Below, piece after piece: positions 12,196 through 61,415 of a stretch of 64,000 bases of DNA. Source of the stretch: a virus; IMG/VR virus record IMGVR_UViG_3300022902_000004, positions 190,268 to 254,267 of that record; one strand, 5' to 3'. The notes below the pieces were generated by a model. That model made no database searches and was not told where the DNA came from. It worked only from the letters and a program-made list of their open reading frames with translations. The first letter of the stretch is position 1. Each line of letters starts with the position of its first letter. Both the position numbers and the translations under genes were made by a program.

Positions 12196-12681
12196 TTATC
12201 CTGCCGCGAAGATTATTACTTCGATTGCTTGGTTCGTTAGTGCTAAACCAGGGACGTTGTACATCACCTTGATTTTGCTTCTGATTACATTTTCATCGTT
12301 CGATTTCTCAACGCTTGGTTCAAAAACATCTAGCTCCACAAACGGCATGTACTTTTTGACTGTCTTGATTATTCTGCGGGCAGCTTCTTCGTCTGTATTT
12401 TCGGCCGTGAATTCAAAAGCGAGTGGTAATAGATTTGCGCCGAAGTCGCTCAATGATAAACGTTCGCCATGGTTTGTTGCTAGCAGGTTTCGTAAATTGT
12501 CCTTGATTTGACTTGCAATATCATATGACATATCAAACATTGAATTGCCCGTTGAGGCGAATGATATAGGTGTGCGAATGCCAATTGGCATCTTTACTTC
12601 CAGATCTTCTACGCTTTTATCGTATGTGTCCTGGAGCTGGCCTACCGATTTGAAATCGTATGTTCGTCGAACCTGTGACAT
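12196..12681 (-). CDS. Baseplate wedge protein gp25/GPW family (lysozyme-like fold)
   Basis: 161 aa. Size and composition fit the GPW/gp25 family (…IGIRTPISFASTGNSMFDMSYDIASQIKDNLRNLLATNHGERL…). Position is upstream of the J-like gene. Confidence 0.55.
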   Translation of the reverse strand: MSQVRRTYDFKSVGQLQDTYDKSVEDLEVKMPIGIRTPISFASTGNSMFDMSYDIASQIKDNLRNLLATNHGERLSLSDFGANLLPLAFEFTAENTDEEAARRIIKTVKKYMPFVELDVFEPSVEKSNDENVIRSKIKVMYNVPGLALTNQAIEVIIFAAG

Positions 12682-12745
12682 TACCTACCTCGATACATAA
12701 ATATCAAAAAACATAAGTTGAAACGCATGCGGCAAAAAATAGCGA

Positions 12746-13576: not shown

Positions 13577-15181
13577 CTATTCTCCGAACATTCTTTTAGA
13601 TTTCAGTGTTGCAATGTCTTGTTTTAGCTTGCTCGATATTTTCGTTTTTAGTTCGGCTGCTGCCTGGTTTAGTTGCGGCGACGGTGCGCCGTACCCGGGT
13701 GTCACATGCGTCAAAACTGTATCGCAAAATGTCACCAATGAATCCATTGTTTCGAACCAAAGATCCTCAAATTGCTTATACTTTATGAAAGGCTGGGCAC
13801 CTCCAGGTCCTGGGCCGGTGGCGTCTCCTCCATCATCTTTACTTCTACCGAAATAGATTGCCTTACCAGATATATGAACAGTTCCGTCAGACTCTATTAT
13901 AATGCCTGCCAAATCATCATCCGGATTCCCCTCTTTTACGATTCGAATTGAACCTGCCACCGAATCAAACTTCTCAGGTAGGTTTCCTGATGAATCCTTT
14001 GTTGGCAATTTTCTTGCCACAATCCTAATATGATCTGATTTTATTGCGATTGCCGGGCCTTCTCTCTGTTCATACTTGTTTTCGAACGGTTTTGGGGCAA
14101 GCTTTCCTAATTTCTTGTCTATCTTCGAATTTGTTGAAACGTATATCCTGGATGCGTCAACAAGAAAATCCGGATCGCCCTCGGCTGGGTTTGTTTTGGC
14201 GTTGCCGGGGGTTGCGGGACCCTCGCCATCGACTTTCCTTTGTGCATCTACATCTTGGACCTGCGCTGGGTCCTTGTCGGTTTCAAATGCACCAAATGAA
14301 TTTTTCGCAATAAATGGCTGTGTACTGTTCTTGACACCTTTCGAAGCTGTACCCTTTCGATTTCGTTTTGTTTCCGACTCGTTATCTTTGAAATACCGGC
14401 CACGACCAACAACAATATCAATTGCTCCTGTTTCTGGCGACTTGACAGTTTCTGACGCTGCGTTTGAAGCATCAGGTGAAACAGGTCGGTCGGTTGCATC
14501 CCAGCCTCTTTCCGTCCCTAGGATGATTGCCGTGTTGTTTGAGCCTTGCAGAACAGTATCCGCTGGGCGCTTTGTCAACCTAGGTACTGCCTCTAGAACA
14601 ATGTTCTTCCCCTCAGCAGAGTTTATAAGTAGTTGCTGGAGGGCTGTGTCATCCCCAGCGATGATTTTTTTGTCATCGTCTCCATTGGGGAACTGTAATG
14701 TCCGATCCAATTTTTCTGAGCCTGTTTGTGTCAAACGATGCGGTCGAGTGAATGCTGTAAAATTTGCATCCTCAAGTGGTAATGAATCTGATATTCGAGT
14801 TACCCAATACGTTCTATCATCGGGCGCGCCGTTCAATATTTTTTGTCGAAAAAGCCAGACCTGTTCGCCTGGCTTCGCCGGCAACGCGATGTGCGATGAA
14901 AAAAACGGGTAAACGACAAGATCGACAGTGTCAGATAAGCCTTCACTTGTTGATATTATACGACAAATCAGCGAATTTCTTGGGGCCAACGAGAACAGTA
15001 TCCTCTGGGGCTCAGAAAGGGTTTCGGGTACTTCTTGGCGAAGGGACACATCGCAAATTGTGTCTATTACAAGGCCTCGCTCGAATATGTTTGTTGTCCT
15101 GATCGAACTTAGATCAGAATCAACGTCGTCAGTCGAACGGACCGCAGCTCCACCATGAATTACCGCCTTTGATGATGTCAT
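13577..15181 (-). CDS. Baseplate hub/central spike-like protein
   Basis: 534 aa gene immediately upstream of the small paralogs and the gp25-like gene, as gpV/gp45-type spikes are. Synteny only. Confidence 0.35.
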   Translation of the reverse strand: MTSSKAVIHGGAAVRSTDDVDSDLSSIRTTNIFERGLVIDTICDVSLRQEVPETLSEPQRILFSLAPRNSLICRIISTSEGLSDTVDLVVYPFFSSHIALPAKPGEQVWLFRQKILNGAPDDRTYWVTRISDSLPLEDANFTAFTRPHRLTQTGSEKLDRTLQFPNGDDDKKIIAGDDTALQQLLINSAEGKNIVLEAVPRLTKRPADTVLQGSNNTAIILGTERGWDATDRPVSPDASNAASETVKSPETGAIDIVVGRGRYFKDNESETKRNRKGTASKGVKNSTQPFIAKNSFGAFETDKDPAQVQDVDAQRKVDGEGPATPGNAKTNPAEGDPDFLVDASRIYVSTNSKIDKKLGKLAPKPFENKYEQREGPAIAIKSDHIRIVARKLPTKDSSGNLPEKFDSVAGSIRIVKEGNPDDDLAGIIIESDGTVHISGKAIYFGRSKDDGGDATGPGPGGAQPFIKYKQFEDLWFETMDSLVTFCDTVLTHVTPGYGAPSPQLNQAAAELKTKISSKLKQDIATLKSKRMFGE

Positions 15182-15561
15182 TGCTTTCCTTCAATCGCCG
15201 CAAATAATTCGTCTGCATCTAGTGTTGCCTGCGCTTCAATTTCTTTCGCGACGACTTGTGCAAGTGCCAGGAGTTGGTCATTCGATTTGCTCATTCGCTC
15301 GAGGTACTTTACCAATGTTCCGCCGAGGGCCATATGCTCAGCGGCACCTTGACCGAGCGCGGCGAAGCACTGCGCCAATAATGCGCATGCGGTGGCTCGG
15401 TCGTTGGCTGCGTTGTTGTAGATTTCCGTCCAAAGATATAATTTTTGCTCTTCGACACCTTCAATCTCTTTCAATATTTTCCCGAACGAGCGAATCTTCA
15501 CCTGCGCGGACTTGTCATCCGCCATCAGCTTGTCAACCTTTTTTATATTCGTTGGCTTCAT
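15178..15561 (-). CDS. Hypothetical protein
   Basis: 127-aa ORF. The real start is probably the internal ATG near 15525, just after the stop of the upstream sigma gene. Confidence 0.4.
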   Translation of the reverse strand: MKPTNIKKVDKLMADDKSAQVKIRSFGKILKEIEGVEEQKLYLWTEIYNNAANDRATACALLAQCFAALGQGAAEHMALGGTLVKYLERMSKSNDQLLALAQVVAKEIEAQATLDADELFAAIEGKQ

Positions 15562-16279
15562 CTCTTCGTTCCTCTGCTACCACCTGGGCATAAATCTTTC
15601 TGATTTTGCTCATCGACTTTGTCACTTGCTTCTTTTCAAACCCAGATATCTCTACTAAATAGACATAAATCGATTGCTTGTTTATAAAATCTAGCTCGTC
15701 AACCTGGTCAAACAAGCCTTCAACTGCCGTCATGACTGTTATGTCACGCGGATCGCGAAGACTCTTCTTGATTTTCTTCACCCTGGCAACTTGTTCGACT
15801 TTCCTTTCCCGGAGAAGCATGAGCTCCTCTGTTGAAGGAAGTTCAACAAAATTGGAAATCTGCTTTTGTGTGTCCCTGGAGAGGTGCAACGTATCATTTA
15901 GATACACGTGTTTATAATACTTCTTTCTGTGACTATTCGTCGTGTTGATTAGGAAGTTTTTTGCAACCACATTGAAATACGAGAATGCTTTCGAACCTCG
16001 ATCGGGATTCCACTTATGTAACGAGTTATACAGTGAGTAGCTGCATTCTTCAATCAGTTCAGCAGCAGACATCAGCGGTGACTTGAACCCATATACATAG
16101 ACCAAGCTCTCCGACAACTTCATTATCGCCGGCTTGATTTTGTCGCCGTAAATAATTTCCCTCTGTCGTGTGTCACTCTCGCCTAAAAATGCAAGAATTG
16201 CAACTTCGGTATTTTTGTCAAAGTATAAAACACTTTTGCGGCCGGGCTTTCTTTTGATACGTTTTTTTCTTTTTATCAT
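15533..16279 (-). CDS. T4 gp55-like late-transcription sigma factor
   Basis: 248 aa. The segment DKIKPAIMKLSESL...SKAFSYFNVVAKNFLINTTNSHRKKYYKHVY parallels the T4 gp55 core (…AIMLIAEGL…[21 protein letters not shown]…, recalled from memory). It sits at the head of the structural operon. Confidence 0.45.
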   Translation of the reverse strand: MIKRKKRIKRKPGRKSVLYFDKNTEVAILAFLGESDTRQREIIYGDKIKPAIMKLSESLVYVYGFKSPLMSAAELIEECSYSLYNSLHKWNPDRGSKAFSYFNVVAKNFLINTTNSHRKKYYKHVYLNDTLHLSRDTQKQISNFVELPSTEELMLLRERKVEQVARVKKIKKSLRDPRDITVMTAVEGLFDQVDELDFINKQSIYVYLVEISGFEKKQVTKSMSKIRKIYAQVVAEERRDEANEYKKG

Positions 16280-16572: not shown

Positions 16573-17745
16573 TTATGCCTCCGTGACCGGTAATATACAT
16601 CGCATATACGCTTCAATTATCGCATCGATGCTATGGGTCTTTTTGAGTGTAGATGACAGTTCCTTTGCCGAAACCGTCAGGCTCTCCTTGTTTTTCAGTA
16701 CCTTGACAAGCTTTTTCTTGAAGTTGCCACCGCGGACGTCTGCCCATTTTGCACCGGGAACAAAAATTCGATTGTCAATTCTAGATTGTGGAATGCGTAC
16801 CATATCATAATGCACGCGTTGAAAACTGTCGCCTGACAGGAATTCCGTGTATGCCGACCAATCCGTCGCTACGATTGGTAAACCTGCAACTGCGGCCTCA
16901 ACCATTGGAAGACCAAAGCCTTCTCCACGGGTAGCTGAAATCAGCGCTGTCAGCTTTTCGCTCTTATACAGGTTCGTCATTTCTTCTCTGGTCATGGAAC
17001 CATGAAGCATATACAACTTTGGAAATGATTTCTTGTTTATTGACTTCTTGATTTGACCTAGGAGCTTTCTTACCAACTCTCGATCGATTGTAGTGTCACG
17101 GCCCTTCGTTGTTTTCACAATCAAACCGACATCATCTTTCTCACTGAACGCCTCTAGGAACCACGTAATCGATGCAACAAGATTTTTCCTGTCTGCCGCG
17201 GGGTCATCTGAAATCAGAGTTCCAACGATCAGAAAGTTGTTTGATGTCGGTAATGATTCGAGTGGATCCGACGTTGGAGGAAGAAGAAGCTCAGGAAAGA
17301 ATGCTTCCGGAACAACCTTGATTGGCGTCTTTTCGTTTCCTGTCGAAACCATTATCATCCCGGCTTTTGCATGAGCGCTTGGGACAATCACCAAGTCCAT
17401 CTTTTCTCGACAAACAGTTCCCCATTCGACTGAACATCTGTCTGTTTCTACGCCGGCGGTGATTCCAACATTGAAATGGCCCAGATCGGGATTCCATTCA
17501 TGTGGCAATTGGATCTGGATGGTGATGTCAAATTTCCCTTCCATAGGTTTTGACTTCTCCATGATCCTGCCGTAAATTCCATTTTCAAAATCAGAATTGA
17601 CACACCATGCAGTAATACCCCATGGCAGCACCTCAGTTGTCAGGTTCCAATCGCTTTGGGTTTCACAAAACTGGAAAACCTGGCGGGAATGAACTCCGTA
17701 TCCACTCTGGCTCAACAATGGCGCACGAATCAAAACGTTTTTCAT
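16573..17745 (-). CDS. Glycosyltransferase, GT-B fold (GT4-like)
   Basis: C-terminal EGFGLPMVEAAVAGLPIVATDWS motif (E-x7-E) typical of GT1/GT4 retaining transferases. Confidence 0.7.
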   Translation of the reverse strand: MKNVLIRAPLLSQSGYGVHSRQVFQFCETQSDWNLTTEVLPWGITAWCVNSDFENGIYGRIMEKSKPMEGKFDITIQIQLPHEWNPDLGHFNVGITAGVETDRCSVEWGTVCREKMDLVIVPSAHAKAGMIMVSTGNEKTPIKVVPEAFFPELLLPPTSDPLESLPTSNNFLIVGTLISDDPAADRKNLVASITWFLEAFSEKDDVGLIVKTTKGRDTTIDRELVRKLLGQIKKSINKKSFPKLYMLHGSMTREEMTNLYKSEKLTALISATRGEGFGLPMVEAAVAGLPIVATDWSAYTEFLSGDSFQRVHYDMVRIPQSRIDNRIFVPGAKWADVRGGNFKKKLVKVLKNKESLTVSAKELSSTLKKTHSIDAIIEAYMRCILPVTEA

Positions 17746-18995
17746 TATGCAATCTCCTCAATCGTAAACTTGTTATCAAATTTCCAATCATCGCATAGCT
17801 TTTGTAATGATTCATGCCAAAGGTCGATGGTTGTCTCCAGTTTGAACTCAGACGTCACGTATGCTTTTGCCTTAGTACCCAACACCTTTCGGGCTTCGGG
17901 ACCCATGCTGTACATCTGATGAAGCCCATTGGCCACAGATTCAGTTCCCACATAGTCCTCGTATATATAAGGCACCATCTGAGAGCCTACCAGCGATTGT
18001 GTTTCGACTTCAAGGGCGATGCCGTTTTCTGAGCCATCGCGGTGGTCGATGACCTGTCTTGTCAGACCGCCTGTCTTCACGGCAATAATTGGATTTCCAA
18101 CCTGCATTGATTCGAGGGTTGTCAAACCGAAACCTTCGGCGTACGAAATGTTCAGGCAGCAATCTGTAATGTTGTGCAGAACATTCATTTGTTCAAAGTT
18201 TGTGCGCTGGGTTGAGAACACGACACTGTCAATGATTCCAAACTTCTCGGCGATGACCAGCAGGTTCGGTCCTTCCTGATCCAGCGGGTCAGTATGCATT
18301 AGCAATGTCGCGTCTGATTTCCCTTCTTTCTCAAGCTTCTTCATGAACTTCGACCATGCCTCTAAAACGTCGGCCGGTCTTTTCCGCCTTGCGTTTCTGT
18401 TGGCCCAAAAAACAATGAAGTGATTTTCACGTTCGGCGCCGAGTGTATGTCGTCGGTGTTCCAAGATTTCGTTTTCAGGTAGAGGAAAGAAAATCTCATC
18501 GGGAAGAGCATGAGGAACAAAGTTCGCCTTCCCCGGAATAATCTCGTTTACCATTTCATATGTTAGGTGGCTGTGGCAATTGACCAAATCTGTCGCTTCA
18601 TAAAGAACCCGATTGAATTCTGGAGTTGGGCGGTTATCCCACACATGCCAGTATGCAATCGGGCAAATCTTGTTGATTTCGTCGTGCATCTCCCAGATAT
18701 AAATGAAGAATCGTGGGTCCGTAAAGAGCAGGAGAACGTCTGGTTTTTCGGCAGCCAAGGTTTGAAGAATCAGTTCTCTATTTCCAAAACCGTCGATGGG
18801 CTTGATTATGAAGTCAGGATTCACGACGACAGTTTCATAATTGTCGTGTTTCTGGGCGGCGCCAAACTGCCGAATCGACCAGCACCCTTTTTCCAAAAGG
18901 CCGTTGATCAAAAACCTACTTTGACAACCAACGCCCGAGGAGCTCAAGGCATGATCTGACAACATCAATATTTTCTTTTTTTGTACTTGCATCAA
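17745..18995 (-). CDS. Glycosyltransferase, GT-B fold (GT4-like)
   Basis: EGFGLTTLESMQVGNPIIAVKTGG motif. The track start is a TTG, and the in-frame ATG at 18992 is the more likely start. Confidence 0.7.
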   Translation of the reverse strand: MMQVQKKKILMLSDHALSSSGVGCQSRFLINGLLEKGCWSIRQFGAAQKHDNYETVVVNPDFIIKPIDGFGNRELILQTLAAEKPDVLLLFTDPRFFIYIWEMHDEINKICPIAYWHVWDNRPTPEFNRVLYEATDLVNCHSHLTYEMVNEIIPGKANFVPHALPDEIFFPLPENEILEHRRHTLGAERENHFIVFWANRNARRKRPADVLEAWSKFMKKLEKEGKSDATLLMHTDPLDQEGPNLLVIAEKFGIIDSVVFSTQRTNFEQMNVLHNITDCCLNISYAEGFGLTTLESMQVGNPIIAVKTGGLTRQVIDHRDGSENGIALEVETQSLVGSQMVPYIYEDYVGTESVANGLHQMYSMGPEARKVLGTKAKAYVTSEFKLETTIDLWHESLQKLCDDWKFDNKFTIEEIA

Positions 18996-19080
18996 TACAA
19001 TACTATCTTGCTATTCGATGATAGTAAAATACCGTGTTACATCGCGGCGAGCGTGAATAATATCATAGTAAAGGAGAAAA

Positions 19081-19569
19081 ATGAGAAACTACTTACAGGT
19101 TGACTCAGACATGATATACCACCAAGTCCTGGTCGAGGAACCTACAACAATTTTTCACTGGTCAAGACGTCCCGGTGATTTTCTCGATGAAAAAACAGGG
19201 ATACTTTCGCCAATGATAATGGAGTGGAGCGGGAATGTCCGTGAATGGTACGAAGGTCTAACCGATACTATTTCTCGTGCATTCTGTGATATGACATCGA
19301 ATCTTCATGGTGATGGGATGGCCCGCGGGATCGTCGTATCACCCCTGGCAGCCACAATAATTGAATTTTCTCTAAGTTTCAGGACGGACATCTCGAGTCC
19401 CAAAATCATTAGTCGTGGCAAATTCGCCATGATTGGGTTCCTTCGCGGGGTGCCGGTTTATGTCATAAACACCAGTGATCATGATATATGCACTTTGTTT
19501 GTCATGGGTTGCGATTTGTGTAAAACCATGAAAGTCGGTCGCGTTTCGATTGCCCATATGAATGCCTAG
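19081..19569 (+). CDS. Hypothetical protein (isolated plus-strand gene)
   Basis: A strong SD (AAAGGAG) lies 7 nt upstream of the ATG. The 162-aa ORF fills the gap between minus-strand genes. Confidence 0.55.
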   Translation: MRNYLQVDSDMIYHQVLVEEPTTIFHWSRRPGDFLDEKTGILSPMIMEWSGNVREWYEGLTDTISRAFCDMTSNLHGDGMARGIVVSPLAATIIEFSLSFRTDISSPKIISRGKFAMIGFLRGVPVYVINTSDHDICTLFVMGCDLCKTMKVGRVSIAHMNA

Positions 19570-20447
19570 AACAACTGAACATACCCTTTACAATGCTCGG
19601 TGTTTGCGAACTCGCAGAACTTGCATGAGTATCTGTTCTTCAGCGTGAACTCGGCTTCCATGTTTTTCAACATGTTGATGACCATCTTTTCGGCTTTCGC
19701 CATGACCTTCGGTCCTGATGATACTTCAACCATCGACACTGATTTACCTGGCTTTGCTTCACGGTGGAGAAGAACGTATGCTGTTTTCACATCCCGAGAT
19801 TTCTTTCCTGTGTGGCGCATCCAGAAATGCTTGTAAAGAATGACCTGAGCTAATGTCAAGAAGTCTTGCTTCTTTCTTCGCTGCCAACCATATCGTCCTG
19901 CTGTTTTCCAGTCGATGATGACATGTTTTCCATTGGGAAGTTCAATCACGCAATCGATGTAGCCCTTGAAGTGACCGGTCGTCTTCAAAACGTCAGCATA
20001 CAACATATGTTCCGCTTCGACAGTCTTCCACCCAGGAAATGTCTTTTCCATGAAATCAGGGAGCTGTGTTAGGGCATTCGTTGCCGATTCCAGCCAACCT
20101 GGAAGTTCGACATGTTTGTATTTCCAACCTTGAGCCCTGGCTCTCGCCGTTTGTTCCTTGATCCATTCCTCATCATCAAATCCTCGTTTCTTCCAGGCTT
20201 CCTTGATTTTCTCATGGACTGCCGGGATGTCTATCGTTCTTGTATTGAGGAAACTCTCGCCACCATCGTGGACGATTGTACCATAATCCAAATATGGGCT
20301 TATGATTTCCTCATCTGATGCTGGAATATACAAAAGGTCATGGCGCCATCCACAACCTGCCCAAGTACTAACTTCAGAATATGAGACGTGTGGTTTTCCG
20401 TTTCTTAGCAACGGAAGTGAGGGATCGATTGTTACTTTCTTTTTCAT
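19566..20447 (-). CDS. Cas4/RecB-family PD-(D/E)XK nuclease with Fe-S cysteines
   Basis: Carries GYIDCVIEL and IIDWKTAG (D..E.K / DYKTG-type) nuclease motifs. An N-terminal Cys (AGCGW) plus a C-terminal CKFC…EHC cluster matches the Cas4-like 4-Cys arrangement. Confidence 0.6.
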   Translation of the reverse strand: MKKKVTIDPSLPLLRNGKPHVSYSEVSTWAGCGWRHDLLYIPASDEEIISPYLDYGTIVHDGGESFLNTRTIDIPAVHEKIKEAWKKRGFDDEEWIKEQTARARAQGWKYKHVELPGWLESATNALTQLPDFMEKTFPGWKTVEAEHMLYADVLKTTGHFKGYIDCVIELPNGKHVIIDWKTAGRYGWQRRKKQDFLTLAQVILYKHFWMRHTGKKSRDVKTAYVLLHREAKPGKSVSMVEVSSGPKVMAKAEKMVINMLKNMEAEFTLKNRYSCKFCEFANTEHCKGYVQLF

Positions 20448-20481
20448 ATTTCAATTGTATGAATATGTTGACAACTTTACA

Positions 20482-20847
20482 TTAGTCGCCTTTTTGAATC
20501 CTGTAACTGTCAGAATCGAAGTGCTGTGTTGAAAATTCGTACAACTCAGTGTCCTCGAGGGCAATCATTTGGTGTCGCATCCCTCTCGTCACGTGGAAGT
20601 TATCGCCCTTTTCCAGGATGACCTCGCAGGCATCTTCAACCTCGTCCCATTCCGGCGCAGAATAAAGTACCTTGATTCTCCCGGATTGTACAAAGAAAAC
20701 TTCATCCTTGAGCTTGTGATAATGCCAGGAACATCGTTTCCCTTTCACAAAAAACAGGAGCTTGCCGCAATACTCTTCGCAGTTCACAATCCATTTTTCA
20801 AAGCCCCAGCCTTTTGGGACAAATTTAATCGGCAAAGAATTCGGCAT
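20482..20847 (-). CDS. Small cupin-fold protein (sugar ketoisomerase/epimerase-like)
   Basis: 121 aa with a KGWGFEKW…SWHYH…E.FFV.SG cupin metal-binding pattern. It lies next to sugar-nucleotide genes. Confidence 0.5.
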   Translation of the reverse strand: MPNSLPIKFVPKGWGFEKWIVNCEEYCGKLLFFVKGKRCSWHYHKLKDEVFFVQSGRIKVLYSAPEWDEVEDACEVILEKGDNFHVTRGMRHQMIALEDTELYEFSTQHFDSDSYRIQKGD

Positions 20848-21145
20848 CTTTCATTCCTTTATCGTCAATGTATATGTCACCACTCGGTTTTCCTAGTCGG
20901 AGATCATGAAATTTGACTCCCCAGTCGTACAGTTGAGCCAGTGTCAAATCATAAAACTGCGTTATTGCAGCTACTTGGTTATCTTTGTTGCGGCCCATAC
21001 CTCGGGCCGTATAGATAGTAATGCTATGGCCGGATTCAAACAGCTTATTGACTCGTGCAATTCGGTCCCTGTGTGGACGCGCTACATTGTAATCACCGTC
21101 AGTTGTCGTGCACAGTGTTCCGTCCAGATCAAATACGTAGCGCAT
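20825..21145 (-). CDS. Small HAD-superfamily phosphatase (GmhB-like role)
   Basis: FDLDGTL motif I and GKPSGDIYIDD motif IV. Adjacent to the RfaE-like kinase and nucleotidyltransferase. Confidence 0.6.
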   Translation of the reverse strand: MRYVFDLDGTLCTTTDGDYNVARPHRDRIARVNKLFESGHSITIYTARGMGRNKDNQVAAITQFYDLTLAQLYDWGVKFHDLRLGKPSGDIYIDDKGMKDAEFFAD

Positions 21146-21527
21146 TTATTGCCTCCGTTGATGAATGCGTTCCTATCCTAGGAAAATAGTCGACCTCAGC
21201 CAAATGTGAGCCAACAACCCGCCTTCCGTCATACTCGCTGCCGACAACGATTTTGTCGGCTTTCCAGTTTTCGATTTCTTGGCACATTTCTTCATCCGAG
21301 CCGTAACACACAACGACATCAACACATTCCAATGCACGAAGCATTCTCATCCTGTTCACAAGATCATTGTGGGGTCGGAGGGGTCCCTTGTTTTCAGAGA
21401 CCCTCTCATCGGTATCGACACCAACGACAAGAAATTGGCCTTTGCTTTTTGCGTATTCCAACATTGCAAGATGTCCCACGTGCAAAATATCGAAGCATCC
21501 ATTTGTCCAAATGACGGTTGGGCTCAT
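21129..21527 (-). CDS. Cytidylyltransferase-family nucleotidyltransferase (HldE/RfaE domain II-like)
   Basis: TNGCFDILHVGHL is the HxGH nucleotidyltransferase signature. Size (132 aa) matches the stand-alone RfaE domain II. Confidence 0.7.
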   Translation of the reverse strand: MSPTVIWTNGCFDILHVGHLAMLEYAKSKGQFLVVGVDTDERVSENKGPLRPHNDLVNRMRMLRALECVDVVVCYGSDEEMCQEIENWKADKIVVGSEYDGRRVVGSHLAEVDYFPRIGTHSSTEAINALRI

Positions 21528-22264
21528 ATCGTTGATACCCCTTTTTTCTGGACAACGATTGATGCAATTTCATTTCCCTTTTCAATAGCAGCCTGAACAT
21601 CACCTGTTTCAGTAAATGTCTTTGCGAATGCAGAAACGAATGAGTCACCAGCACCAGCAGAATCAACTCGATTCACCGTTGGCGTTGGATACACAGTTCC
21701 TCGATACATTGCACCACGAGGGCCCAATGTCACGATTAGATTTTCAATGATGTCTTCACCAAGAACTGATTTTGTACGTGCATACTCCGTCTCATTGATT
21801 TTGATGAATGAGATTGAATATGCCCATTCACCAAGAATCTTTTTTGTATCGAGGATTGAGATTTTCGATTTGCGCCCGATGAAGTTGATTTGATTCGTCG
21901 ACAACCAGCCTTTGTCATAATCAGATATCACGACGCAATCATATTTCGAGAAATCAATACCTCGAAGCAGGGCGTTACCATACTTTTCATCGTTCTCGTC
22001 GACCCTGAGGAACATATGATTCGATTTCGTTTCTACGTAACGAATCTTCTTGATACACTCGGCATTATCATTTGTGTATAGCTCCGTATCGCAACCCAAA
22101 ACTCTCATGTTGGCGGCAACATTTGAAGCCATCCCAAGGTTCTCAACACTTTTGATGCTATTGAAAACAGGAACTGGCGACTCCGGGGCGAGTCGCACTA
22201 CGTTGCCGTATACGAAGACGTCCAAACATGATTCACCAATTACTAAAAATTTCATAGCACACAC
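21524..22264 (-). CDS. PfkB-family sugar kinase (HldE/RfaE domain I-like)
   Basis: PfkB signature GAGDSFVSAF near the C-terminus. It overlaps the nucleotidyltransferase gene by 4 nt. Confidence 0.7.
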   Translation of the reverse strand: MCAMKFLVIGESCLDVFVYGNVVRLAPESPVPVFNSIKSVENLGMASNVAANMRVLGCDTELYTNDNAECIKKIRYVETKSNHMFLRVDENDEKYGNALLRGIDFSKYDCVVISDYDKGWLSTNQINFIGRKSKISILDTKKILGEWAYSISFIKINETEYARTKSVLGEDIIENLIVTLGPRGAMYRGTVYPTPTVNRVDSAGAGDSFVSAFAKTFTETGDVQAAIEKGNEIASIVVQKKGVSTI

Positions 22265-23442
22265 TTGACAAGGTCGCAGATTCTATCGATGTCTTCCGTA
22301 CCTAACTCTGGATTGTTGGGTAAAAAGAACCCACAATCATGAATCTCATCTGAAACGGGATGACTAAACTCACCGTATTCCGCCTTCCAGAATGGGTGCT
22401 TTCCTAAGTTTCCTGCGCTGAAGATTCTTGTTTCGACGCCGGCAACCCGTAGCATCTTCACAATTTTCGTTCGTTGTGCCTTGTCTTTTGCCAGGAGACC
22501 AAACGAGATTGAGACCGGCTTGTTGGTTCCCCAATCTTGAAACTTGAAAGTTCCTCGTAGGTTTTCCGCGTAGCGCTTGTGATTTCTCTCTCTGGCCTCT
22601 GATACCCAAGGTGCTTTCTTGACCTGGTCGATTCCAATGAATGCCTGTAAGTCTGTCGCCCTCAAGTTGAATCCTGGAACGAAGAATGTGAACGGTTTGT
22701 GGAAGTCATCAACTCCATTTTCTTCAACCAACCCGTCGTACACTGACTCATCAAGATCCTTTCCCCAGCCGTGACTTCGGAGCATGAGCAACATTTGGTA
22801 TGTTTCGAAATCGTCGGTGTTCACCATACCACCTTCAATTGTCGCCAACTGATGCCCAAAGTAGAATGAGAAGCTCGACATTTTGCCAACCGTTCCCACC
22901 TTCTTGCCGTTTGCATATTCAGCACCGAGAGCTGCGCAGCCGTCCTCAAGCAAAGTGAAGTTGTATTTCTTTGAGAGGGCATGCAATCTTTCAGCGTCAT
23001 GCGGGATACCGAGAACCTGCACAAAAATTACCGTTGCCGGATCCTCTTCGATACACACTTTTTCGAGGTCGTCGAGATCGATTCCATACGTTTTTGCATC
23101 GGCGCCAACCATGATCGGGTCGAAACCAAATTGCATGAATGGTGCGATTGTTGTGACCCATCCCACCGATGGGACGACGACCTTCATGTTTCTTGGCTTT
23201 GCAACCTTTGCGGCGTACGCCATCAGCAGGTTTGCAGAAGAGCCGGAGTTGCAAAACACAGAGTACTTCGTACCGATGTATTTCGCCCATGCTTTCTCAA
23301 ACTTTACCGTTAGTTCGCCCTTTGTCAGGCGAGGATATGTTTTCAGCCAATTGATAAGATTATCGATATCGTGATCGCTAATCGTATCTTTTGCCAGTGG
23401 GTACTCAATTTTATTCATCAATTTTCTCCATCCAATATTCAA
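22252..23442 (-). CDS. DegT/DnrJ/EryC1-family PLP/PMP enzyme, ColD-like 3-dehydratase
   Basis: Fold-type I sugar aminotransferase motif SFSFYFGHQLATIEGG. A His occupies the position of the Schiff-base Lys, as in GDP-4-keto-6-deoxymannose 3-dehydratase ColD and the E1 dehydratases. Gmd lies directly downstream. Confidence 0.6.
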   Translation of the reverse strand: MNIGWRKLMNKIEYPLAKDTISDHDIDNLINWLKTYPRLTKGELTVKFEKAWAKYIGTKYSVFCNSGSSANLLMAYAAKVAKPRNMKVVVPSVGWVTTIAPFMQFGFDPIMVGADAKTYGIDLDDLEKVCIEEDPATVIFVQVLGIPHDAERLHALSKKYNFTLLEDGCAALGAEYANGKKVGTVGKMSSFSFYFGHQLATIEGGMVNTDDFETYQMLLMLRSHGWGKDLDESVYDGLVEENGVDDFHKPFTFFVPGFNLRATDLQAFIGIDQVKKAPWVSEARERNHKRYAENLRGTFKFQDWGTNKPVSISFGLLAKDKAQRTKIVKMLRVAGVETRIFSAGNLGKHPFWKAEYGEFSHPVSDEIHDCGFFLPNNPELGTEDIDRICDLVKCVL

Positions 23443-24409
23443 TCATTTCGTCCAACATAGATTCGAATGTGTACTCAAATTGAAAGTTCGTTTTTGTTGT
23501 TGGGCCTATTTTTCCTAGAAGCTTTGAGGCATCACCTTTTAGGTTGTGCAACTCAAGTGGTCTCACGAACCGTGGGTCAACAACCACATGGTCATTATAA
23601 TTCAAATCTAGGTAATTGAAAACATATTCGCAAAGATGCCTAACTGAATTTGAACGACCGGTGGCCATGACAAAATCGTCACACTCATCCAACTGCAAAA
23701 TCGCATGCATCGCCCTAACATAATCTTTGGCATGACCCCAGTCCCGTGTTGCATCTAGGTTTCCTAAACGGAGCTCTTTCATCAAACCTTTTTTGATTCG
23801 AACTGCACCGATGACGACCTTATTCGTCACGAAATTGGCACCTCGGCGGGGTGACTCATGATTGAACAGAATACCGTTCGACAGAAACATGTTGTACGAT
23901 TCCCTATAGCACCTCATCAATGAGTAGGCCATTTGTTTTGCACAACCGTACGGGCTGACAGGAGACATTGGTGTTGTCTCTCTTTGGAATCCATCCGGAT
24001 CAATGTTGTTGCCAAACATTTCAGAGCTGCTTGCCTGATAAATCTTGGCCGAGGGATAACAGAGTCGCGTCGCTTCCAGCAAATTCATCACGCCCAAACC
24101 AGTTGCCTGGATTGTATACAACGGCTGGTCGAAACTTACCTTCACATGACTTTGAGCCGCCAGATTGTAAATCTCATGAGGTTTCACATCCATCACAACA
24201 CGAACCAACGATGCCATGTCTGTCACATCGGCAAACTGCAGGTTTTCTTTGATTTTTGCGTAAGTTCCGTCGTTCAGACGAGCAGATTGGTTTTCTGCGA
24301 TTGAGTTTCGTTTGAGTGTACCATGAACATTGTACCCCAATTCGAGGAGATATTCGGCAAGATAACTTCCATCTTGCCCGTTGATCCCCGTCACGAGTGC
24401 GCGTTTCAT
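23411..24409 (-). CDS. gmd: GDP-mannose 4,6-dehydratase
   Basis: MKRALVTGINGQDGSYLAEYLLELGYNVHG, GILFNHESPRRG and RDWGHAKDYV are near-identical to bacterial Gmd. Confidence 0.85.
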   Translation of the reverse strand: MKRALVTGINGQDGSYLAEYLLELGYNVHGTLKRNSIAENQSARLNDGTYAKIKENLQFADVTDMASLVRVVMDVKPHEIYNLAAQSHVKVSFDQPLYTIQATGLGVMNLLEATRLCYPSAKIYQASSSEMFGNNIDPDGFQRETTPMSPVSPYGCAKQMAYSLMRCYRESYNMFLSNGILFNHESPRRGANFVTNKVVIGAVRIKKGLMKELRLGNLDATRDWGHAKDYVRAMHAILQLDECDDFVMATGRSNSVRHLCEYVFNYLDLNYNDHVVVDPRFVRPLELHNLKGDASKLLGKIGPTTKTNFQFEYTFESMLDEMIEYWMEKIDE

Positions 24410-25332
24410 TACTTCCTCGCATGCTCAAAGTTTTCTTCAAACCATTTTGAAGTGTTAACAATTGCCCAAACGATTGGTGTCCGTACAAATGTTGGGAACA
24501 AATCATCAAAGTATTCACTTACCGTTTGGCGACGGAGTTGCCCGTTCGGCTTTGACGTATCCCAATCAACACTAACATTGAAATATTCTGCCACCGTCTC
24601 AACCAGCTTCCTGATTTCCAGTTCATCGCCTGACACAATCAGTTTCTGCGGCAAATCATCCACCGACGCTAGCAATTCGAAGCATGCTTCCGCCAAATCA
24701 TCAACGTAGATAAATTCACGACGAGGAGAGCCATCGCCCCATGCTTGCAAACTGGTTCCATTTTCTCTTGCCAAGTATGCCTTATGAATCAAGGATGGCA
24801 CGACATGCCCATGGGCAAAGTCAAAGTTGTCATTCGGGCCGAAGATGTTTCCTGGGATGATCGAGCAGTAGTTTACGCCGTATTGCTTCCTGTAGGCCTC
24901 AATTTGGACATCAACCATTCTCTTGGCATGAGCGTAAGCTCCATGTGCCGGGAAAGGAGGACCATCGTGTAGGACCGATTCTGTCATCGTTTCCACATCA
25001 GGAAAGGCACATACAGATGAAAACGCAATCAACTTTTCGACGCCATGCTTGTAGGCCTCATCAATGATCATCGTGTTCATCATGACATTGTCAAAAAATT
25101 GCTGCGCTGGCGTTTCAAGGTTTTTCGCAATCCCTCCGACACGGGCAGCAGTATGGATGACATAATTTGGCTTATAACAATCAAACATGTCTTTGACACC
25201 ATCTTGCTCTGTCAGATCCCAATTTTCCCGGGCCGCGAAGATTACATCAAATTGAGAATGATAGCCAGCTAACCTTCTGATAGCATTGCCGACCAACCCA
25301 TTACCGCCTGTGACCAATACCAATTTTTTCAT
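24409..25332 (-). CDS. GDP-L-fucose synthase-like epimerase/reductase (Fcl/ColC-like)
   Basis: SDR with VGNAIRR, HTAARVGG and a YAHAK catalytic motif. Collinear with E. coli Fcl. Confidence 0.75.
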   Translation of the reverse strand: MKKLVLVTGGNGLVGNAIRRLAGYHSQFDVIFAARENWDLTEQDGVKDMFDCYKPNYVIHTAARVGGIAKNLETPAQQFFDNVMMNTMIIDEAYKHGVEKLIAFSSVCAFPDVETMTESVLHDGPPFPAHGAYAHAKRMVDVQIEAYRKQYGVNYCSIIPGNIFGPNDNFDFAHGHVVPSLIHKAYLARENGTSLQAWGDGSPRREFIYVDDLAEACFELLASVDDLPQKLIVSGDELEIRKLVETVAEYFNVSVDWDTSKPNGQLRRQTVSEYFDDLFPTFVRTPIVWAIVNTSKWFEENFEHARK

Positions 25333-25964
25333 AATTTCTTTGCCTCAACATTCAACGACATAAGCAGCCCGGTCGATTTATCCATGTGGGGCAAATATGC
25401 CTGACTGTAATCGTCCACATAAAAATGGTCAGTCTTTCGCCAATCGTATCCTTTCACATCACTAAATCCGGCCTGTTCAAGATCATATTTCAATGTATCG
25501 AAGTCCCACCCGTGAAAATGAAAGTCAAAATCGTATTTTTGGCCGCCAAAAAAGAAAGCCTGGACCTCCGCGAGGTTGCCGGTTGCCAAGTATCGATCAC
25601 ACGCAGCACGCATGTTTGGAACGGCCAAACGCAATGTTCCACCTTTACCCAAAGCTTCAAACCAGTCGGCAAGAATGTCCTTGTATGTTGTCGGGGCAAA
25701 TTTTGATGCCTTCAACGGGAAATGTTCCAAAACATGGGCAGCATAAATCACTTTCGCATCAGAAAACTTGGTCGATAACTTTGAAATGTCACAAACAACA
25801 TCGGGTTGAACGTCTGGACGAATATCCACGTTCGTGTAGCCCCACATTTTCCGGTCGCCGCAACCGACGTTGATTTTGCAGCCATTTTTCTTCAAAATAC
25901 TCATTATCCAAATCTCCTGGCCCATTTTTCTGGTTGGCGTATCCAATTGTCGTACCGTATGCAA
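25329..25964 (-). CDS. Class I SAM-dependent methyltransferase
   Basis: Motif I INVGCGDRK and a …VLEHF… motif. The real start is probably the ATG near 25904, a 4-nt overlap with the upstream stop. Confidence 0.6.
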   Translation of the reverse strand: MHTVRQLDTPTRKMGQEIWIMSILKKNGCKINVGCGDRKMWGYTNVDIRPDVQPDVVCDISKLSTKFSDAKVIYAAHVLEHFPLKASKFAPTTYKDILADWFEALGKGGTLRLAVPNMRAACDRYLATGNLAEVQAFFFGGQKYDFDFHFHGWDFDTLKYDLEQAGFSDVKGYDWRKTDHFYVDDYSQAYLPHMDKSTGLLMSLNVEAKKL

Positions 25965-26728
25965 ACTGGACGATGATGTGACGTAAACGCGTGCCCATAA
26001 ATGCTATTGAACAGCGGTAAATCGTTCTGATAGTATGCCGCAATGATTGGGCTATTATTTTGGTCTCTGCCGGGTTCCCAATCGTGCTTTGTTACAAAAT
26101 TGTCTGACGTTATCACTTTTGAACCACTTCTTTGGGCCCGAAAGGCAAAATCGTGCAAATTCAAGTTGAAATGTTCGAACCTGCAGTCCAAACCGCCCAA
26201 ACCTCTGAACCTTTCCACACTCATCATAAACATTAGGCAAATCTTCCAATCTGGATGAACTCCGGGTATCCGGAGACTGTCATGGTGGTGTGCATTCCAA
26301 TAACTTGGCTTGAAATCGGCCAAATTGGCATTGAAATTCTGCCCTTCGGTATATTTCAATGCAATGATGTCTTTTTCGCTGTCATTTTGTTCAAGAAGGT
26401 CAATGCAATTGCTAAATTCCTTCTCGTTGATGATTACATCGTCTGAGGCAGCGGCGATGTACTTTCCTTGTGCAAGCGTGCTTGCTTTTTGAAGACATCG
26501 TGAAGGGCAACCAAAATCCTGCGAATATTGAACATTTGACAGCCCACGTAAATCGGCAGGCATCGGATATGGCGAAACAAACACAATTTCAAATGGGTGA
26601 CGATCGCATGATAGCAACATTTGTTTATAAACGTTGCCCCAGTTATCATTTCTGATACCTGAGACCAAAAGCGACAAAACTGGCTTCACTTGAACCTCCG
26701 AGTCCATACAGTTTCGACATTTTTCCAA
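25904..26728 (-). CDS. GT-A-like glycosyltransferase, tandem paralog 1
   Basis: Shares ~270-aa collinear similarity with 26686..27489 and 29280..30095 (…ERF..LGG(L/F)D..FE…HDFAFR.Q..G…). Confidence 0.5.
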   Translation of the reverse strand: MEKCRNCMDSEVQVKPVLSLLVSGIRNDNWGNVYKQMLLSCDRHPFEIVFVSPYPMPADLRGLSNVQYSQDFGCPSRCLQKASTLAQGKYIAAASDDVIINEKEFSNCIDLLEQNDSEKDIIALKYTEGQNFNANLADFKPSYWNAHHHDSLRIPGVHPDWKICLMFMMSVERFRGLGGLDCRFEHFNLNLHDFAFRAQRSGSKVITSDNFVTKHDWEPGRDQNNSPIIAAYYQNDLPLFNSIYGHAFTSHHRPVCIRYDNWIRQPEKWARRFG

Positions 26729-27489
26729 TTCATTATCTCGGCGGCAATCGATTCATTCTTCGGCCACTCATTATTTCTGTATTTCGCGTGGAGAAGTGGC
26801 TCATCGTGGAATGTTTGACAATTATGAATCGGTTCGTGGTCGCCTGTTGTTCCTGGCATGTGGTCGCAAATCATGCATGCGATTCCTGACATCTTTACGA
26901 TGGCGCCGGCGGCCTGGGCACGGATTGCAAGGTCAGTTTGTGATGACCAGGTCCCTTCGAATTCAGAGTTGAACCCTCCGAGGGCTTCCAAGAACGAACG
27001 GTGCATAAACGCGACGTTGAAGAGCCACCAATCTGGTGGGAGGTACGGTGATGCCGCAGGACCGGCTGCAATCTTGAAATATGAGTCGTCATGTTGCCGA
27101 TCCCTGTCCACACTTCCAACTTGACCTTCCTGGTATTTTGCAATTACCACATTTAGTGGATTTCCGCCCATTTCTCGAAGGATTTTCATGTTTGCATCGA
27201 CAGAACCAGGCAGCATGATTGCATCATCAGCCTGCCATGTCACAATCTCGCCTTCAGCGACGAGAAGTGCAATATTTTGGGCCCGAGTTGGGTGTCCAAA
27301 ATCTCGTACGTACTTTATGTTTCGATATTGCAGCAATTCTTCCGGAAGTGGATTAGGACCGACCACAATTAGCTCAAACTGAAGCGATGTCGACTCACAT
27401 AGCGATTTGTAAAAGCCTGGAAGGCGTTCTGGTCTGATACTCGGCAAAATTACCGATAATTCAGGCTTTTTGTGTTCTGACATATTCAA
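26686..27489 (-). CDS. GT-A-like glycosyltransferase, tandem paralog 2
   Basis: Paralog of 25904..26728 (…SVILPSIRPERL…ELIVVGP…ADD…LGGFNSEFEG…). Confidence 0.5.
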   Translation of the reverse strand: MNMSEHKKPELSVILPSIRPERLPGFYKSLCESTSLQFELIVVGPNPLPEELLQYRNIKYVRDFGHPTRAQNIALLVAEGEIVTWQADDAIMLPGSVDANMKILREMGGNPLNVVIAKYQEGQVGSVDRDRQHDDSYFKIAAGPAASPYLPPDWWLFNVAFMHRSFLEALGGFNSEFEGTWSSQTDLAIRAQAAGAIVKMSGIACMICDHMPGTTGDHEPIHNCQTFHDEPLLHAKYRNNEWPKNESIAAEIMNWKNVETVWTRRFK

Positions 27490-28471
27490 TTACCTCCCTT
27501 ACTGATTCTCGCAACGAAATGTCCGCTGTAAAGCCCAATACATCCGTTGCTTTTTGAACGTCTGGGACCCTCTTCTGTACATCATAGTCAAATGGCTCAT
27601 CATGTTCAAAAAGTAGCGGCCTTGGATCGCCCAATTCTTCCCAAACAACTGTCGCGAGCTCTTTTACTGTTGTTGGTTGTCTCGTTGATATGTTGAAATC
27701 TTCGTTTTCGGCAGCCTGTGACTCAATGGCTACCCGAATTCCTCTTGCGATGTCTTTTCCGTTGGTGTAGCAACGAACCTGGTTTCCCTGGCCTAGCAAA
27801 CGTAGCGGATATTGACCTTTGACAACCTTGTTGATTAGATCAGGCAAAACATGACTCATCATCATCTCAACATTGCCACTTGTGACCACTTCTTCGCCCA
27901 GGGCTTTGTCTTCTCCAACACCGACACAATTGAATGGCCGAATAATCGTGTAGGGAAGGTTGTATTGCTCATTGGCACCCTTGCAAAAGTACTCGCAAGC
28001 CAATTTTTGGAACCCGTAAGTGCTCAAAGGTGGTGGAGTTGTGGCAATTACACTTTCGGGTGTTGGAAACACATCAGTCGATTCGAAAACCATGCTGCTT
28101 GACAGAACCACGATACGCTTGAGCTGTTTTGTTTTGTGCAAGTGGATTGCTGTGTCGAAAATCGACGCCATAATCCTTTCGTTCGTTGCCAGCAGGTCAT
28201 ACGCATATTTGTGGAAATAAGAAATGCCGCCAATCATTGCTGCCATGCCGACAATCACATCGACATCGCCAAATCTGGCCAAATCTCGTTGTTCGAGACC
28301 GATGACATCCTCTTCGTAGAATGTGAAACAGGGATGATCATCGTGTGCCCGAACAATTTTCCCATATTTTGAGTAATTGTCAATTCCTATGACATTGTGA
28401 CCAGCTTTTAGTAGCTCATTGCAAAGGTAACTTCCAATGAAACCTTGCGAACCGGTAATCATGATATTCAT
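27461..28471 (-). CDS. NAD-dependent sugar epimerase/dehydratase (SDR)
   Basis: MNIMITGSQGFIGSYL Rossmann motif and a YxxxK segment (YGFQKLACE). Size fits a UDP-glucuronate decarboxylase or 4-epimerase. Confidence 0.7.
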   Translation of the reverse strand: MNIMITGSQGFIGSYLCNELLKAGHNVIGIDNYSKYGKIVRAHDDHPCFTFYEEDVIGLEQRDLARFGDVDVIVGMAAMIGGISYFHKYAYDLLATNERIMASIFDTAIHLHKTKQLKRIVVLSSSMVFESTDVFPTPESVIATTPPPLSTYGFQKLACEYFCKGANEQYNLPYTIIRPFNCVGVGEDKALGEEVVTSGNVEMMMSHVLPDLINKVVKGQYPLRLLGQGNQVRCYTNGKDIARGIRVAIESQAAENEDFNISTRQPTTVKELATVVWEELGDPRPLLFEHDEPFDYDVQKRVPDVQKATDVLGFTADISLRESVREVIEYVRTQKA

Positions 28472-29271
28472 TTTAGTCGCATTTCTCCGAACACAGTTGT
28501 TTTGTATTTTGTATTTTCATAGTCAATACTCCGAAATAATCCTGCATTGACATTATGCTTTTCTTGTAGTCTGACAATGGCTTTGACATCTTTTGGAAGG
28601 CAAACGCCTCCGTAACCTCTAAAGTTTTCGTTCACGTCGAGGTATTGGTCTGGAACGGTTCCCATTTTGATGAACGCCGCTTTTACATCATTGTATGAAG
28701 CATCCACTGCTTGGCATGTTTCATAAAATTCATTTGCGAATATGACGCGCATGGCGTTGAAGATATTGGAATAGTACTTTACCATCTCGGCCTCGGTCAA
28801 TCCCATTCTTACAATTTGCTTCGGGTAATTTCCATGAAGTTTCTTGATGAACTTGAATGTTTTCTTGTCTTCACATCCGATTGCCAACAGCAAATGATTC
28901 TCGACGAAGTCTGAGGTTGCACATCTTTCCCTTAGGAACTCTGGCACAAAACAGATGTTCATTCCATACCTTTCTCTAAGGCGGCTGGTAGTCCCTGGTT
29001 CAACCGTAGACTTTATGACAATGATTCCACCATACTTGTGCTTTCGGAGCCTCTGGATTGTATCCTCGACCACAGAAACATCACACGTGCCATCTTCCAA
29101 CTGGTCAGTTGGGACACTTATGAAAACAATTGATGTACTTAGGACATCTTTCAGTTTTGAACCATCTTTTATGTCATAATGGACGACGGTGTGTCCTAAT
29201 TTTTCGAACCCAAACTTGCAGGCCAAACCCACTGTTCCCAATCCTATTATTCCGACTGTTTGCTTTTTCAA
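28468..29271 (-). CDS. UDP-glucose/GDP-mannose dehydrogenase-family protein lacking the C-terminal nucleotide-binding domain
   Basis: N-terminal GIIGLGTVGL NAD fold and the catalytic GGVCLPKD Cys motif. Only 267 aa (complete enzymes are ~390-450 aa). Its stop overlaps the next gene's start. Confidence 0.5.
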   Translation of the reverse strand: MKKQTVGIIGLGTVGLACKFGFEKLGHTVVHYDIKDGSKLKDVLSTSIVFISVPTDQLEDGTCDVSVVEDTIQRLRKHKYGGIIVIKSTVEPGTTSRLRERYGMNICFVPEFLRERCATSDFVENHLLLAIGCEDKKTFKFIKKLHGNYPKQIVRMGLTEAEMVKYYSNIFNAMRVIFANEFYETCQAVDASYNDVKAAFIKMGTVPDQYLDVNENFRGYGGVCLPKDVKAIVRLQEKHNVNAGLFRSIDYENTKYKTTVFGEMRLK

Positions 29272-35656: not shown

Positions 35657-35658
35657 AT

Positions 35659-46167: not shown

Positions 46168-46208
46168 GAAACTGCACCTCTGGGACTAAATATCCGCCCA
46201 GAGAAATT

Positions 46209-47538: not shown

Positions 47539-47547
47539 TGTTATAAT
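47539..47547 (+). promoter_or_regulatory. Extended -10 promoter element TGTTATAAT for the plus-strand sigma region-4 gene
   Basis: TGnTATAAT match about 25 nt upstream of ATG 47573. An AGGA Shine-Dalgarno sits at 47561-47564. Confidence 0.4.
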
Positions 47548-47572
47548 AATAATCTTAATTAGGATGGTAAGA

Positions 47573-47749
47573 ATGAAAAGGAGAAAAGAGAAGAAGGGTT
47601 CGTCAATCAAAAAATCGATGCGTGACAGCTCATTGCAAGAGATTGGTGACAAGCTTGGATTGACCAGAATGAGGATTTGTCAAATCGAAAAGGCAATCCT
47701 CGAAAAGATAAGAAAGACAGGTAAGTTGGACGTTTTCGACGCCAACTAA
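47573..47749 (+). CDS. Stand-alone sigma-70 region 4.2 (HTH) mini-protein
   Basis: …SLQEIGDKLGLTRMRICQIEKAILEKIRK matches the sigma-70 r4.2 consensus (TLeEvG..lgvTrERIRQIEakALrKLR). Only ~59 aa from the SD-preceded ATG. Confidence 0.55.
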   Translation: MKRRKEKKGSSIKKSMRDSSLQEIGDKLGLTRMRICQIEKAILEKIRKTGKLDVFDAN

Positions 47750-47800
47750 TGAAAAGGGCCGAGCATAAGCCCGACCCAGTTCAAATAGCTATATTTTAGC

Positions 47801-52305: not shown

Positions 52306-52363
52306 AAATTCCCCTGTATAATTTTGACTATAACCATGTCTCTTGGTTTATAAACCTATTCGT

Positions 52364-59850: not shown

Positions 59851-59900
59851 TTCACACCCTTGTAAATACTTATACAGGACTAAATATCGGATAACACTAC

Positions 59901-61400: not shown

Positions 61401-61415
61401 AAACTAAATATCATG

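Follow-up and report, generated by a model that had tools for sequence, protein, structure and literature searches.

A stand-alone sigma-70 region 4.2 mini-protein and a gp55-like sigma factor encoded apart in the genome of a large uncultured phage

The DNA analysed here is a window of 64,000 nucleotides (64 kb) from IMG/VR virus record IMGVR_UViG_3300022902_000004 (positions 190,268 to 254,267), in which almost all open reading frames (ORFs) lie on the minus strand. Two of its genes are at issue: one for a sigma factor that resembles the late sigma factor gp55 of phage T4, and one for a very short protein (the mini-protein) that consists of little more than region 4.2 of a sigma-70 factor. 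A sequence-only reading of the window had noted both and proposed that they form a two-piece sigma factor, or that the mini-protein is a sigma-appropriation or decoy factor. The analysis confirms the observation and partly supports that interpretation: the two proteins look like separate regulators, not the halves of one sigma factor. The features that carry the argument are the following.

15533..16279, minus strand: phage sigma factor, 248 amino acids (aa), with a sigma-2 domain and a sigma-4-like helix-turn-helix (HTH) domain
15178..15561, minus strand: ORF127, 127 aa, directly downstream of the sigma gene and overlapping its end; C-terminal tail ...LDADELFAAIEGKQ
47539..47547, plus strand: extended -10 element TGTTATAAT of the mini-protein gene, with no properly spaced -35 element
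47561..47567, plus strand: Shine-Dalgarno site AGGATGG, 5 nt before the ATG at 47573
47573..47749, plus strand: stand-alone sigma-70 region 4.2 mini-protein, 58 aa plus stop
47756..47777, minus strand: intrinsic terminator after the Hc1-like gene, a 9-bp stem with 7 GC pairs, then TTTTCATT
47801-48010, minus strand: Hc1-like protein (chlamydial histone H1-like), 69 aa, PF07432 at 32.3 bits versus 23.5

The mini-protein gene is a real ORF, encoded on the other strand from the sigma gene, and its product contains the peptide SLQEIGDKLGLTRMRICQIEKAILEKIRK quoted in the sequence-only reading. The product can be divided into a basic N-terminal arm MKRRKEKKGSSIKK, an HTH core LQEIGDKLGLTRMRICQIEK and a C-terminal tail, KLDVFDAN. 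The earlier claim that it is a true sigma-70 region 4.2 is borne out by Pfam, where Sigma70_r4 (PF04545) scores 38.2 bits (gathering score 24.1, E=1e-9) and the match, at profile positions 19-50 of 50, is confined to region 4.2. When a profile of the mini-protein family is compared with the PDB, domain 4 of primary sigma factors comes out best, with Thermus/Taq sigma-A at E values of 1e-9 to 4e-9, followed by many SigA/RpoD entries and, far more weakly, by RpoH and RpoS. The protein aligns with residues ~569-606 of E. coli RpoD, after which the two tails are alike (KLDVFDAN versus EVLRSFLDD). An AlphaFold2 (AF2) model predicts a short helix at residues 12-16 followed by HTH helices at 21-28 and 32-49, with a predicted local distance difference test (pLDDT) score of about 90 in the core. 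Members of the sigma-70 family carry a sigma-2 domain in the same polypeptide; the mini-protein, with its 58 aa and no room for a longer frame, has none.

The stand-alone character of the gene is settled by its neighbours. An intact phoH gene (PHROG E=8.6e-87) has its start codon on the other strand, 50 bp upstream of the mini-protein ORF, so no longer reading frame is available and a fragment of a longer, frameshifted sigma gene is excluded. The gene's own extended -10 element and Shine-Dalgarno site, both called by the sequence-only reading, are present as listed above, and the TGTTA of the -10 element is kept in the closest relatives. On the other side, a strong terminator (folding z-score -5.8 on the minus strand, -3.9 on the plus strand) comes after the Hc1-like gene and stops just before the mini-protein gene, which is therefore an insulated, divergently oriented unit shielded from antisense read-through. 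The Hc1-like gene directly adjoins the mini-protein gene in relatives as well. The coding strand of the window has extended -10 sites at three other positions, 62723-62731, 63876-63884 and 41030-41038, all on the minus strand, with TGGTATAAT twice and TGTTATAAT once; at least the site at 62723-62731 is ~60 nt upstream of a gene start, and the three may belong, with the mini-protein promoter, to one class of early promoters.

Homologues of the mini-protein number 157, about 40 of them close and these all of 41-72 aa, and 251 loci are confirmed in IMG/VR. The order of the locus is kept among them: PhoH (minus), mini-protein (plus), Hc1-like (minus), then the PrkA/SpoVR/DUF444 genes. The core LQEIGDxxGxTRMRICQIEK is nearly invariant, and 15 positions are invariant among 34 aligned members. 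Across 87 unique core DNA sequences, with a median nucleotide identity of 72%, the median nonsynonymous divergence (dN) is 0.14 and synonymous sites (dS) are saturated, a pattern that indicates strong purifying selection on the mini-protein. A dead leftover of an rpoD 3' end, or a chance ORF, might have been suspected from a frame this short in a 278-bp gap between two minus-strand genes; it is refuted by this conservation at a fixed syntenic position and, with a promoter and Shine-Dalgarno site of the gene's own against it as well, deserves practically no credence.

The family exists in two forms. The short form, found in the window clade, has the basic N-terminal arm and a tail of the type L-[DE]-x-F. 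The long form, found at most loci, has 73-113 aa and carries a Cys/His cluster, TCFxEHx6-7Cx4CxxWx7-9NC, instead of the arm and no tail; Sigma70_r4 scores 37-38.5 bits on its members. This cluster (loci L012-L089) occupies the place of region 4.1 and resembles a metal-binding module, with no Pfam family matched. Upstream of the long-form gene, 37 of 132 unique loci have a TGTACA palindrome within 120 nt, compared with ~2% expected from the flanking DNA; its positions cluster 41-56 nt before the start codon (loci L012-L292), and it may serve as a promoter element or operator. The window clade has no TGTACA and shows TGTTA(TAAT) in its place. No mini-protein was found in cultured phages by tblastn, the long-form query meeting only region 4.2 of full-length sigma genes, and a scan of bacterial and archaeal genomes returned mostly region 4.2 of cellular sigma factors together with mis-binned phage contigs, and no clue to the host.

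The sigma factor has a gp55-like sigma-2 domain at about residues 20-123, as in the T4 gp55 late sigma family, followed by helices between 135 and 173 and by C-terminal helices at 177-191, 201-212 and 216-247. It matches PHROG 234, 'late sigma transcription factor', over residues 41-169 (E=7.6e-5). Other sequence comparisons are fainter: Pfam Sigma70_r2 matches below threshold only, phmmer against PDB sequences returns weak matches to regions 2-3 of RpoS (E about 0.05) and hhalign with T4 gp55 is weak (E=0.06). None of its 140 homologues (240-278 aa) has a Pfam assignment, and IMG/VR has at least 549 loci of the family. A 40-sequence alignment gives a confident AF2 model, with a pLDDT of 84, and the resemblance to gp55 is thus real in terms of fold.

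The gp55-like sigma-2 domain of the earlier description therefore stands. Its restriction to region 2 does not: the protein has ~100 extra C-terminal residues, and its last three helices extend past the gp55-homologous part, whereas the gp55 family has no region 4. The final two of these helices are parted by a three-residue turn, as in a classical HTH, and Gly213 in the turn is conserved in at least 90% of sequences. Isolated sigma-4 domain structures cover nearly their whole length on the AF2 model, as shown here with their structural alignment scores.

2h27_D, E. coli sigma-E region 4 on -35 DNA: score 6.4, 68 of 69 residues aligned
5fgm_A, SigR region 4: score 5.9, 62 of 65 residues aligned
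4g6d_A, S. aureus sigma-A domain 4: score 5.8, 59 of 62 residues aligned

With Foldseek, the whole model aligns over 225-296 columns with full-length sigma-32, SigH, sigma-S, sigma-A and phage sigma factors. The best-supported description of the 15533-16279 product, as modelled, is a late-type sigma factor that would be complete by itself, with a sigma-4-like HTH domain of its own.

Mapping of late promoters upstream of structural genes, which the sequence-only reading had suggested as a check, yields a conserved candidate. A k-mer scan of the upstream regions of the window singles out GATATTT, which leads to the following sites.

46186..46194, minus strand: candidate late promoter GATATTTAG, 27 nt upstream of the ATG of gene 45823-46167, leading into tail-fibre-like genes
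12697..12705, minus strand: candidate late promoter GATATTTAT, upstream of the gp25-like baseplate gene 12196-12681
59880..59888, minus strand: candidate late promoter GATATTTAG, upstream of gene 58375-59850, in the head-module region with the ClpP-like protease
61404..61412, minus strand: candidate late promoter GATATTTAG, upstream of gene 61017-61382

All three exact copies of GATATTTAG and the GATATTTAT variant are on the coding strand, 24-38 nt before an ATG, in the short intergenic gaps that make up ~4% of the window, and the genes that follow are baseplate, tail-fibre-like and head-module genes. At the 46186-46194 site, GATATTTAG is invariant at the orthologous position in relatives L004-L006, L010 and L011, while the flanks have diverged. 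At the orthologous positions of the GATATTTAT site, eight relatives have GATATTTAG; in four to five of these the sigma factor is only ~41-44% identical. No conserved -35-type element accompanies GATATTTAG at the orthologous positions compared. The T4 late motif TATAAATA occurs twice in the window against 1.2 copies expected, in neither case on the coding strand upstream of a gene. The candidate fits a single-element promoter of the gp55 style. Most likely, the sigma-2 domain would bind the core enzyme and read this -10-like element, and the phage sigma factor would in this way direct host RNA polymerase to GATATTTAG.

Whether the two proteins are coupled was judged from their distribution, with co-occurrence counts that are lower bounds. 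The genes occur together on at least 14 contigs, and on five of the six sigma-bearing contigs of at least 200 kb among the matches listed; the contigs of this lineage are phage contigs of 70-370 kb. Sigma factor and mini-protein are core genes of one lineage, from which joint action does not follow. In the window, 31 kb lie between the two genes, which are on opposite strands and in separate transcription units. The nearest cultured relative is Flavobacterium phage immuto, whose sigma factor is 25% identical and whose gene order is sigma, a small downstream gene, then baseplate genes. A similarity search detects no mini-protein in immuto despite its sigma factor and ORF127 homologue, so the sigma factor does not need the mini-protein everywhere. 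Together, the sigma factor's own sigma-4-like domain, the 31-kb separation, immuto and the lack of a -35 element at the candidate promoters disfavour an obligatory two-piece sigma factor, and this part of the sequence-only reading is not upheld.

ORF127 offers a different partner for the sigma factor. An ORF of ~116-139 aa that ends in the acidic-aromatic family consensus IDxDD[LI]FxxI follows the sigma gene directly in all but two of ~60 distinct related loci, and its equivalent in immuto is gp117, after the sigma gene. No similarity of ORF127 to T4 gp33 (by hhalign), PHROGs or PDB sequences was detected. If the lineage has a gp33-like co-activator, ORF127 is a candidate for it on a par with the mini-protein or better.

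A co-activator role for the mini-protein itself has been weighed against this. It would then act as a surrogate for region 4, placed on the beta-flap tip helix together with the gp55-like sigma factor at late promoters, with the LDVF tail of the window clade contacting the sliding clamp. The gp55-like nature of the sigma-2 domain and the joint presence of both genes across the lineage speak for such a role, as does the lack of a recognisable gp33: a PHROG scan of 10 more small ORFs of the window gives nothing, and tblastn with T4 gp45, gp44, gp62, gp33, gp55, gp43, gp32, rpbA and dsbA finds no match in 3 Mb of DNA, in a test so insensitive that it misses even the gp55-like sigma factor. The same search with the same limit provides no clamp gene for the tail to contact. 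Other points also tell against the role, namely that the sigma-4-like domain of the sigma factor would fill the flap, that the mini-protein is without region 4.1, that it is missing from immuto, and that ORF127, with its DDLF tail and its place beside the sigma gene, competes for it.

The C-terminal tails bear on both sides of this question. In T4, the clamp-binding tails read SLDFLYEAND in gp55, TLDFLL in gp33 and SLDFLFG in gp43. Most distant relatives of the sigma factor end in VDLF, VDLL, FDIF, YDIF or FSLF, and the tails of a hydrophobic-Asp-hydrophobic-hydrophobic type (VDLF, FDIF, YDIF) resemble the T4 motif (defined in PMC7892883), which favours the co-activator. Sigma factors of the window clade have no such tail and end, for example, in ANEYKKG or EEKGGL; that of the window ends in ...RRDEANEYKKG, with nothing like the clamp-binding motif of gp55. 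Short mini-proteins of the same clade end in LDVFDAN, LEEFK or LDEFK, and the long form has no such tail. A short, tailed mini-protein accompanies a tail-less sigma factor in three of three pairs, the window included, and a long, tail-less mini-protein accompanies a tailed sigma factor in 10 of 11, which makes the distribution complementary in 13 of 14 pairs. This pattern counts for the co-activator, yet it reflects the split of one clade, roughly one evolutionary event, and most mini-proteins are tail-less. The tail KLDVFDAN resembles all three T4 motifs, but it also resembles the native C-terminus of sigma-70 (E. coli ...EVLRSFLDD) and may simply have been inherited, for which reason the idea that a clamp motif migrated from sigma factor to mini-protein has been downgraded.

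On balance the co-activator is unlikely. Slightly less likely still is its fuller version, in which the mini-protein is a sigma-70-derived functional analogue of gp33 and the clamp-binding tail has moved from sigma factor to mini-protein in the window clade. Were that version true, clamp-activated late transcription would extend far outside T4-like phages, and the flap adaptor would have arisen at least twice from unrelated folds.

The reading preferred here, tentatively and at a little under even confidence, is that the mini-protein is an independent small HTH regulator or competitor that acts where region 4.2 of the host sigma-70 acts, and that the sigma factor is separate and complete. Sigma-70 residues R584, E585, R588 and Q589 touch the -35 element. 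The equivalents of T583, R584, R586 and Q589 (sigma-70 numbering) are invariant in the mini-protein family, E585 is replaced by Met in at least 90% of members, and R588 by Cys without exception. Under the preferred reading, the mini-protein would be made from its extended -10 promoter with no need of a -35 contact, probably as an early unit, and would use the retained recognition helix to contact duplex DNA. Because of the Met and Cys replacements, its specificity would be expected to differ from TTGACA. It could then compete with or modulate -35-dependent transcription, and the extended -10 and GATATTTAG promoters of the phage would be unaffected.

Several observations weigh against this reading. 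No operator or binding motif was found for the mini-protein. An HTH that lacks region 4.1 may be unable to fold or bind DNA alone, and the AF2 model, a two- to three-helix HTH of this kind, reaches a pLDDT of 75. Invariant Met and Cys on a recognition helix are unusual for base contacts and could form a protein interface instead. On the side of the sigma factor, its C-terminal domain shows no sequence-level similarity to Sigma70_r4, since a profile of that domain gives noise against PDB sequences and Pfam, and its likeness to sigma-4 is accordingly one of fold; a profile-profile comparison of the sigma and mini-protein families likewise detects no similarity. Finally, the tight lineage-wide co-occurrence of the two genes is also compatible with a functional partnership.

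A further reading, which is improbable, makes the mini-protein a protein decoy or competitor of host sigma-70 region 4. It would bind no DNA and would titrate a partner that recognises region 4.2 of primary sigma factors, whether the flap tip, class II activators or an anti-sigma or Rsd-like factor. The expected outcome would be that -35-dependent host promoters are turned off, as by T4 AsiA in function, and that extended -10 phage promoters stay active. A core that is near-invariant across phages whose sigma factors are only ~35% identical fits a conserved host interface. The closeness to primary and not alternative sigma factors, the extended -10 class of the gene's promoter and the Met and Cys at two -35-contacting positions are likewise in keeping with a decoy. 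Against it, the window holds four extended -10 sites where 1.8 would be expected, which is no significant excess, the basic arm of the short form and the Cys/His cluster of the long form look more like accessories of DNA binding, and without region 4.1 the flap-binding groove would be only partial.

The recognisable genes of the window also include a T4-type baseplate wedge gene, the gp25-like gene, a ClpP-like prohead protease, the PhoH-like protein, a helicase and glycosyltransferases. A search of cultured-phage DNA with 7 kb of the window gives no match, and the window sequence is also found, reversed, at ~27,056-91,055 of a 184,543-bp metagenomic contig (ena:ERZ27250255:k141_352318); these two results identify the window as part of a large uncultured myophage-like genome. 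The phage is a member of an uncultured lineage of large aquatic myophages. A complete PrkA/SpoVR/DUF444 triad, a stress or sporulation kinase module of the YeaG-YeaH-YcgB type, lies at 50368-54836 on the minus strand and adjoins the mini-protein locus in relatives too. PrkA homologues at 29-34% identity are found in Thermus phages phiYS40/TMA and Ralstonia jumbo phage RsoM2USA. A long series of genes for sugar nucleotides and glycosylation at 16573-28500 (minus strand) separates the sigma gene from the rest of the genome and contains two GT4 glycosyltransferases, two epimerase/dehydratase genes, a DegT aminotransferase, a PfkB kinase, a cytidylyltransferase and a cupin. The GC content (fraction of G and C) is 0.38-0.41 at 32001-40000 compared with ~0.45 in the rest of the window; this segment may have been acquired laterally, and it holds long gaps that look non-coding at 36919-37178 and 39922-40169.

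The mini-protein family is widespread and uncharacterised. It is a core gene of an abundant lineage of large uncultured aquatic phages, of which more than 250 loci are known and none of them in a cultured phage, and no phage study of a free-standing copy of primary-sigma region 4.2 was found in the literature searched. A 58-residue protein, a companion sigma factor and the sharply defined candidate promoter GATATTTAG make a simple system for testing. It may offer insight into how phages re-use pieces of host sigma factors for takeover, and into gp55-type late transcription outside the T4 family. The attractive split-sigma reading is corrected as unsupported.

Compared with known systems, the sigma factor is closest to T4 gp55, a protein of 185 aa with helices H1-H4 homologous to sigma region 2, an H4-H5 helix-loop-helix and a disordered C-terminal motif that binds the sliding clamp (PMC7892883). 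It differs from gp55 (PDB 7D7C/7D7D) in being 63 residues longer, in the C-terminal sigma-4-like HTH domain that gp55 lacks, in having no clamp-binding-like tail and in its candidate motif, GATATTTAG instead of the TATAAATA of T4. The mini-protein corresponds to the C-terminal ~45 residues of primary sigma factors (RpoD/SigA), with HTH helices 3 and 4, a T-R-x-R-I-x-Q-I-E recognition helix and an L-x-x-F tail; unlike a primary sigma factor it is free-standing, without regions 1-3 and with a basic arm or a Cys/His cluster where region 4.1 would be. The fold of T4 gp33, with five helices, is not related to sigma region 4, and gp33 alone does not bind DNA (PMC7892883). The mini-protein is similarly small, could take the place of sigma region 4 on the flap and has an LDVF tail that resembles TLDFLL, but it is a sigma-4.2 HTH with no sequence similarity to gp33, and most members of its family have no tail.

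SigO-RsoA is a truly split sigma factor in which neither half is complete (PMC7826278), and it provides a precedent for dividing sigma-2 and sigma-4 functions between two polypeptides. The window differs from it in that the sigma-2 protein already has a sigma-4-like domain and the two genes are neither adjacent nor co-transcribed. T4 AsiA (PMC6755090) and SPO1 Gp33 (PMC13401047) are phage factors that disable region 4 of the host sigma factor by binding or remodelling it. An early loss of -35-dependent host transcription is a possible outcome shared with the mini-protein, which, unlike these two factors, is itself a copy of region 4.2 and is homologous to neither.

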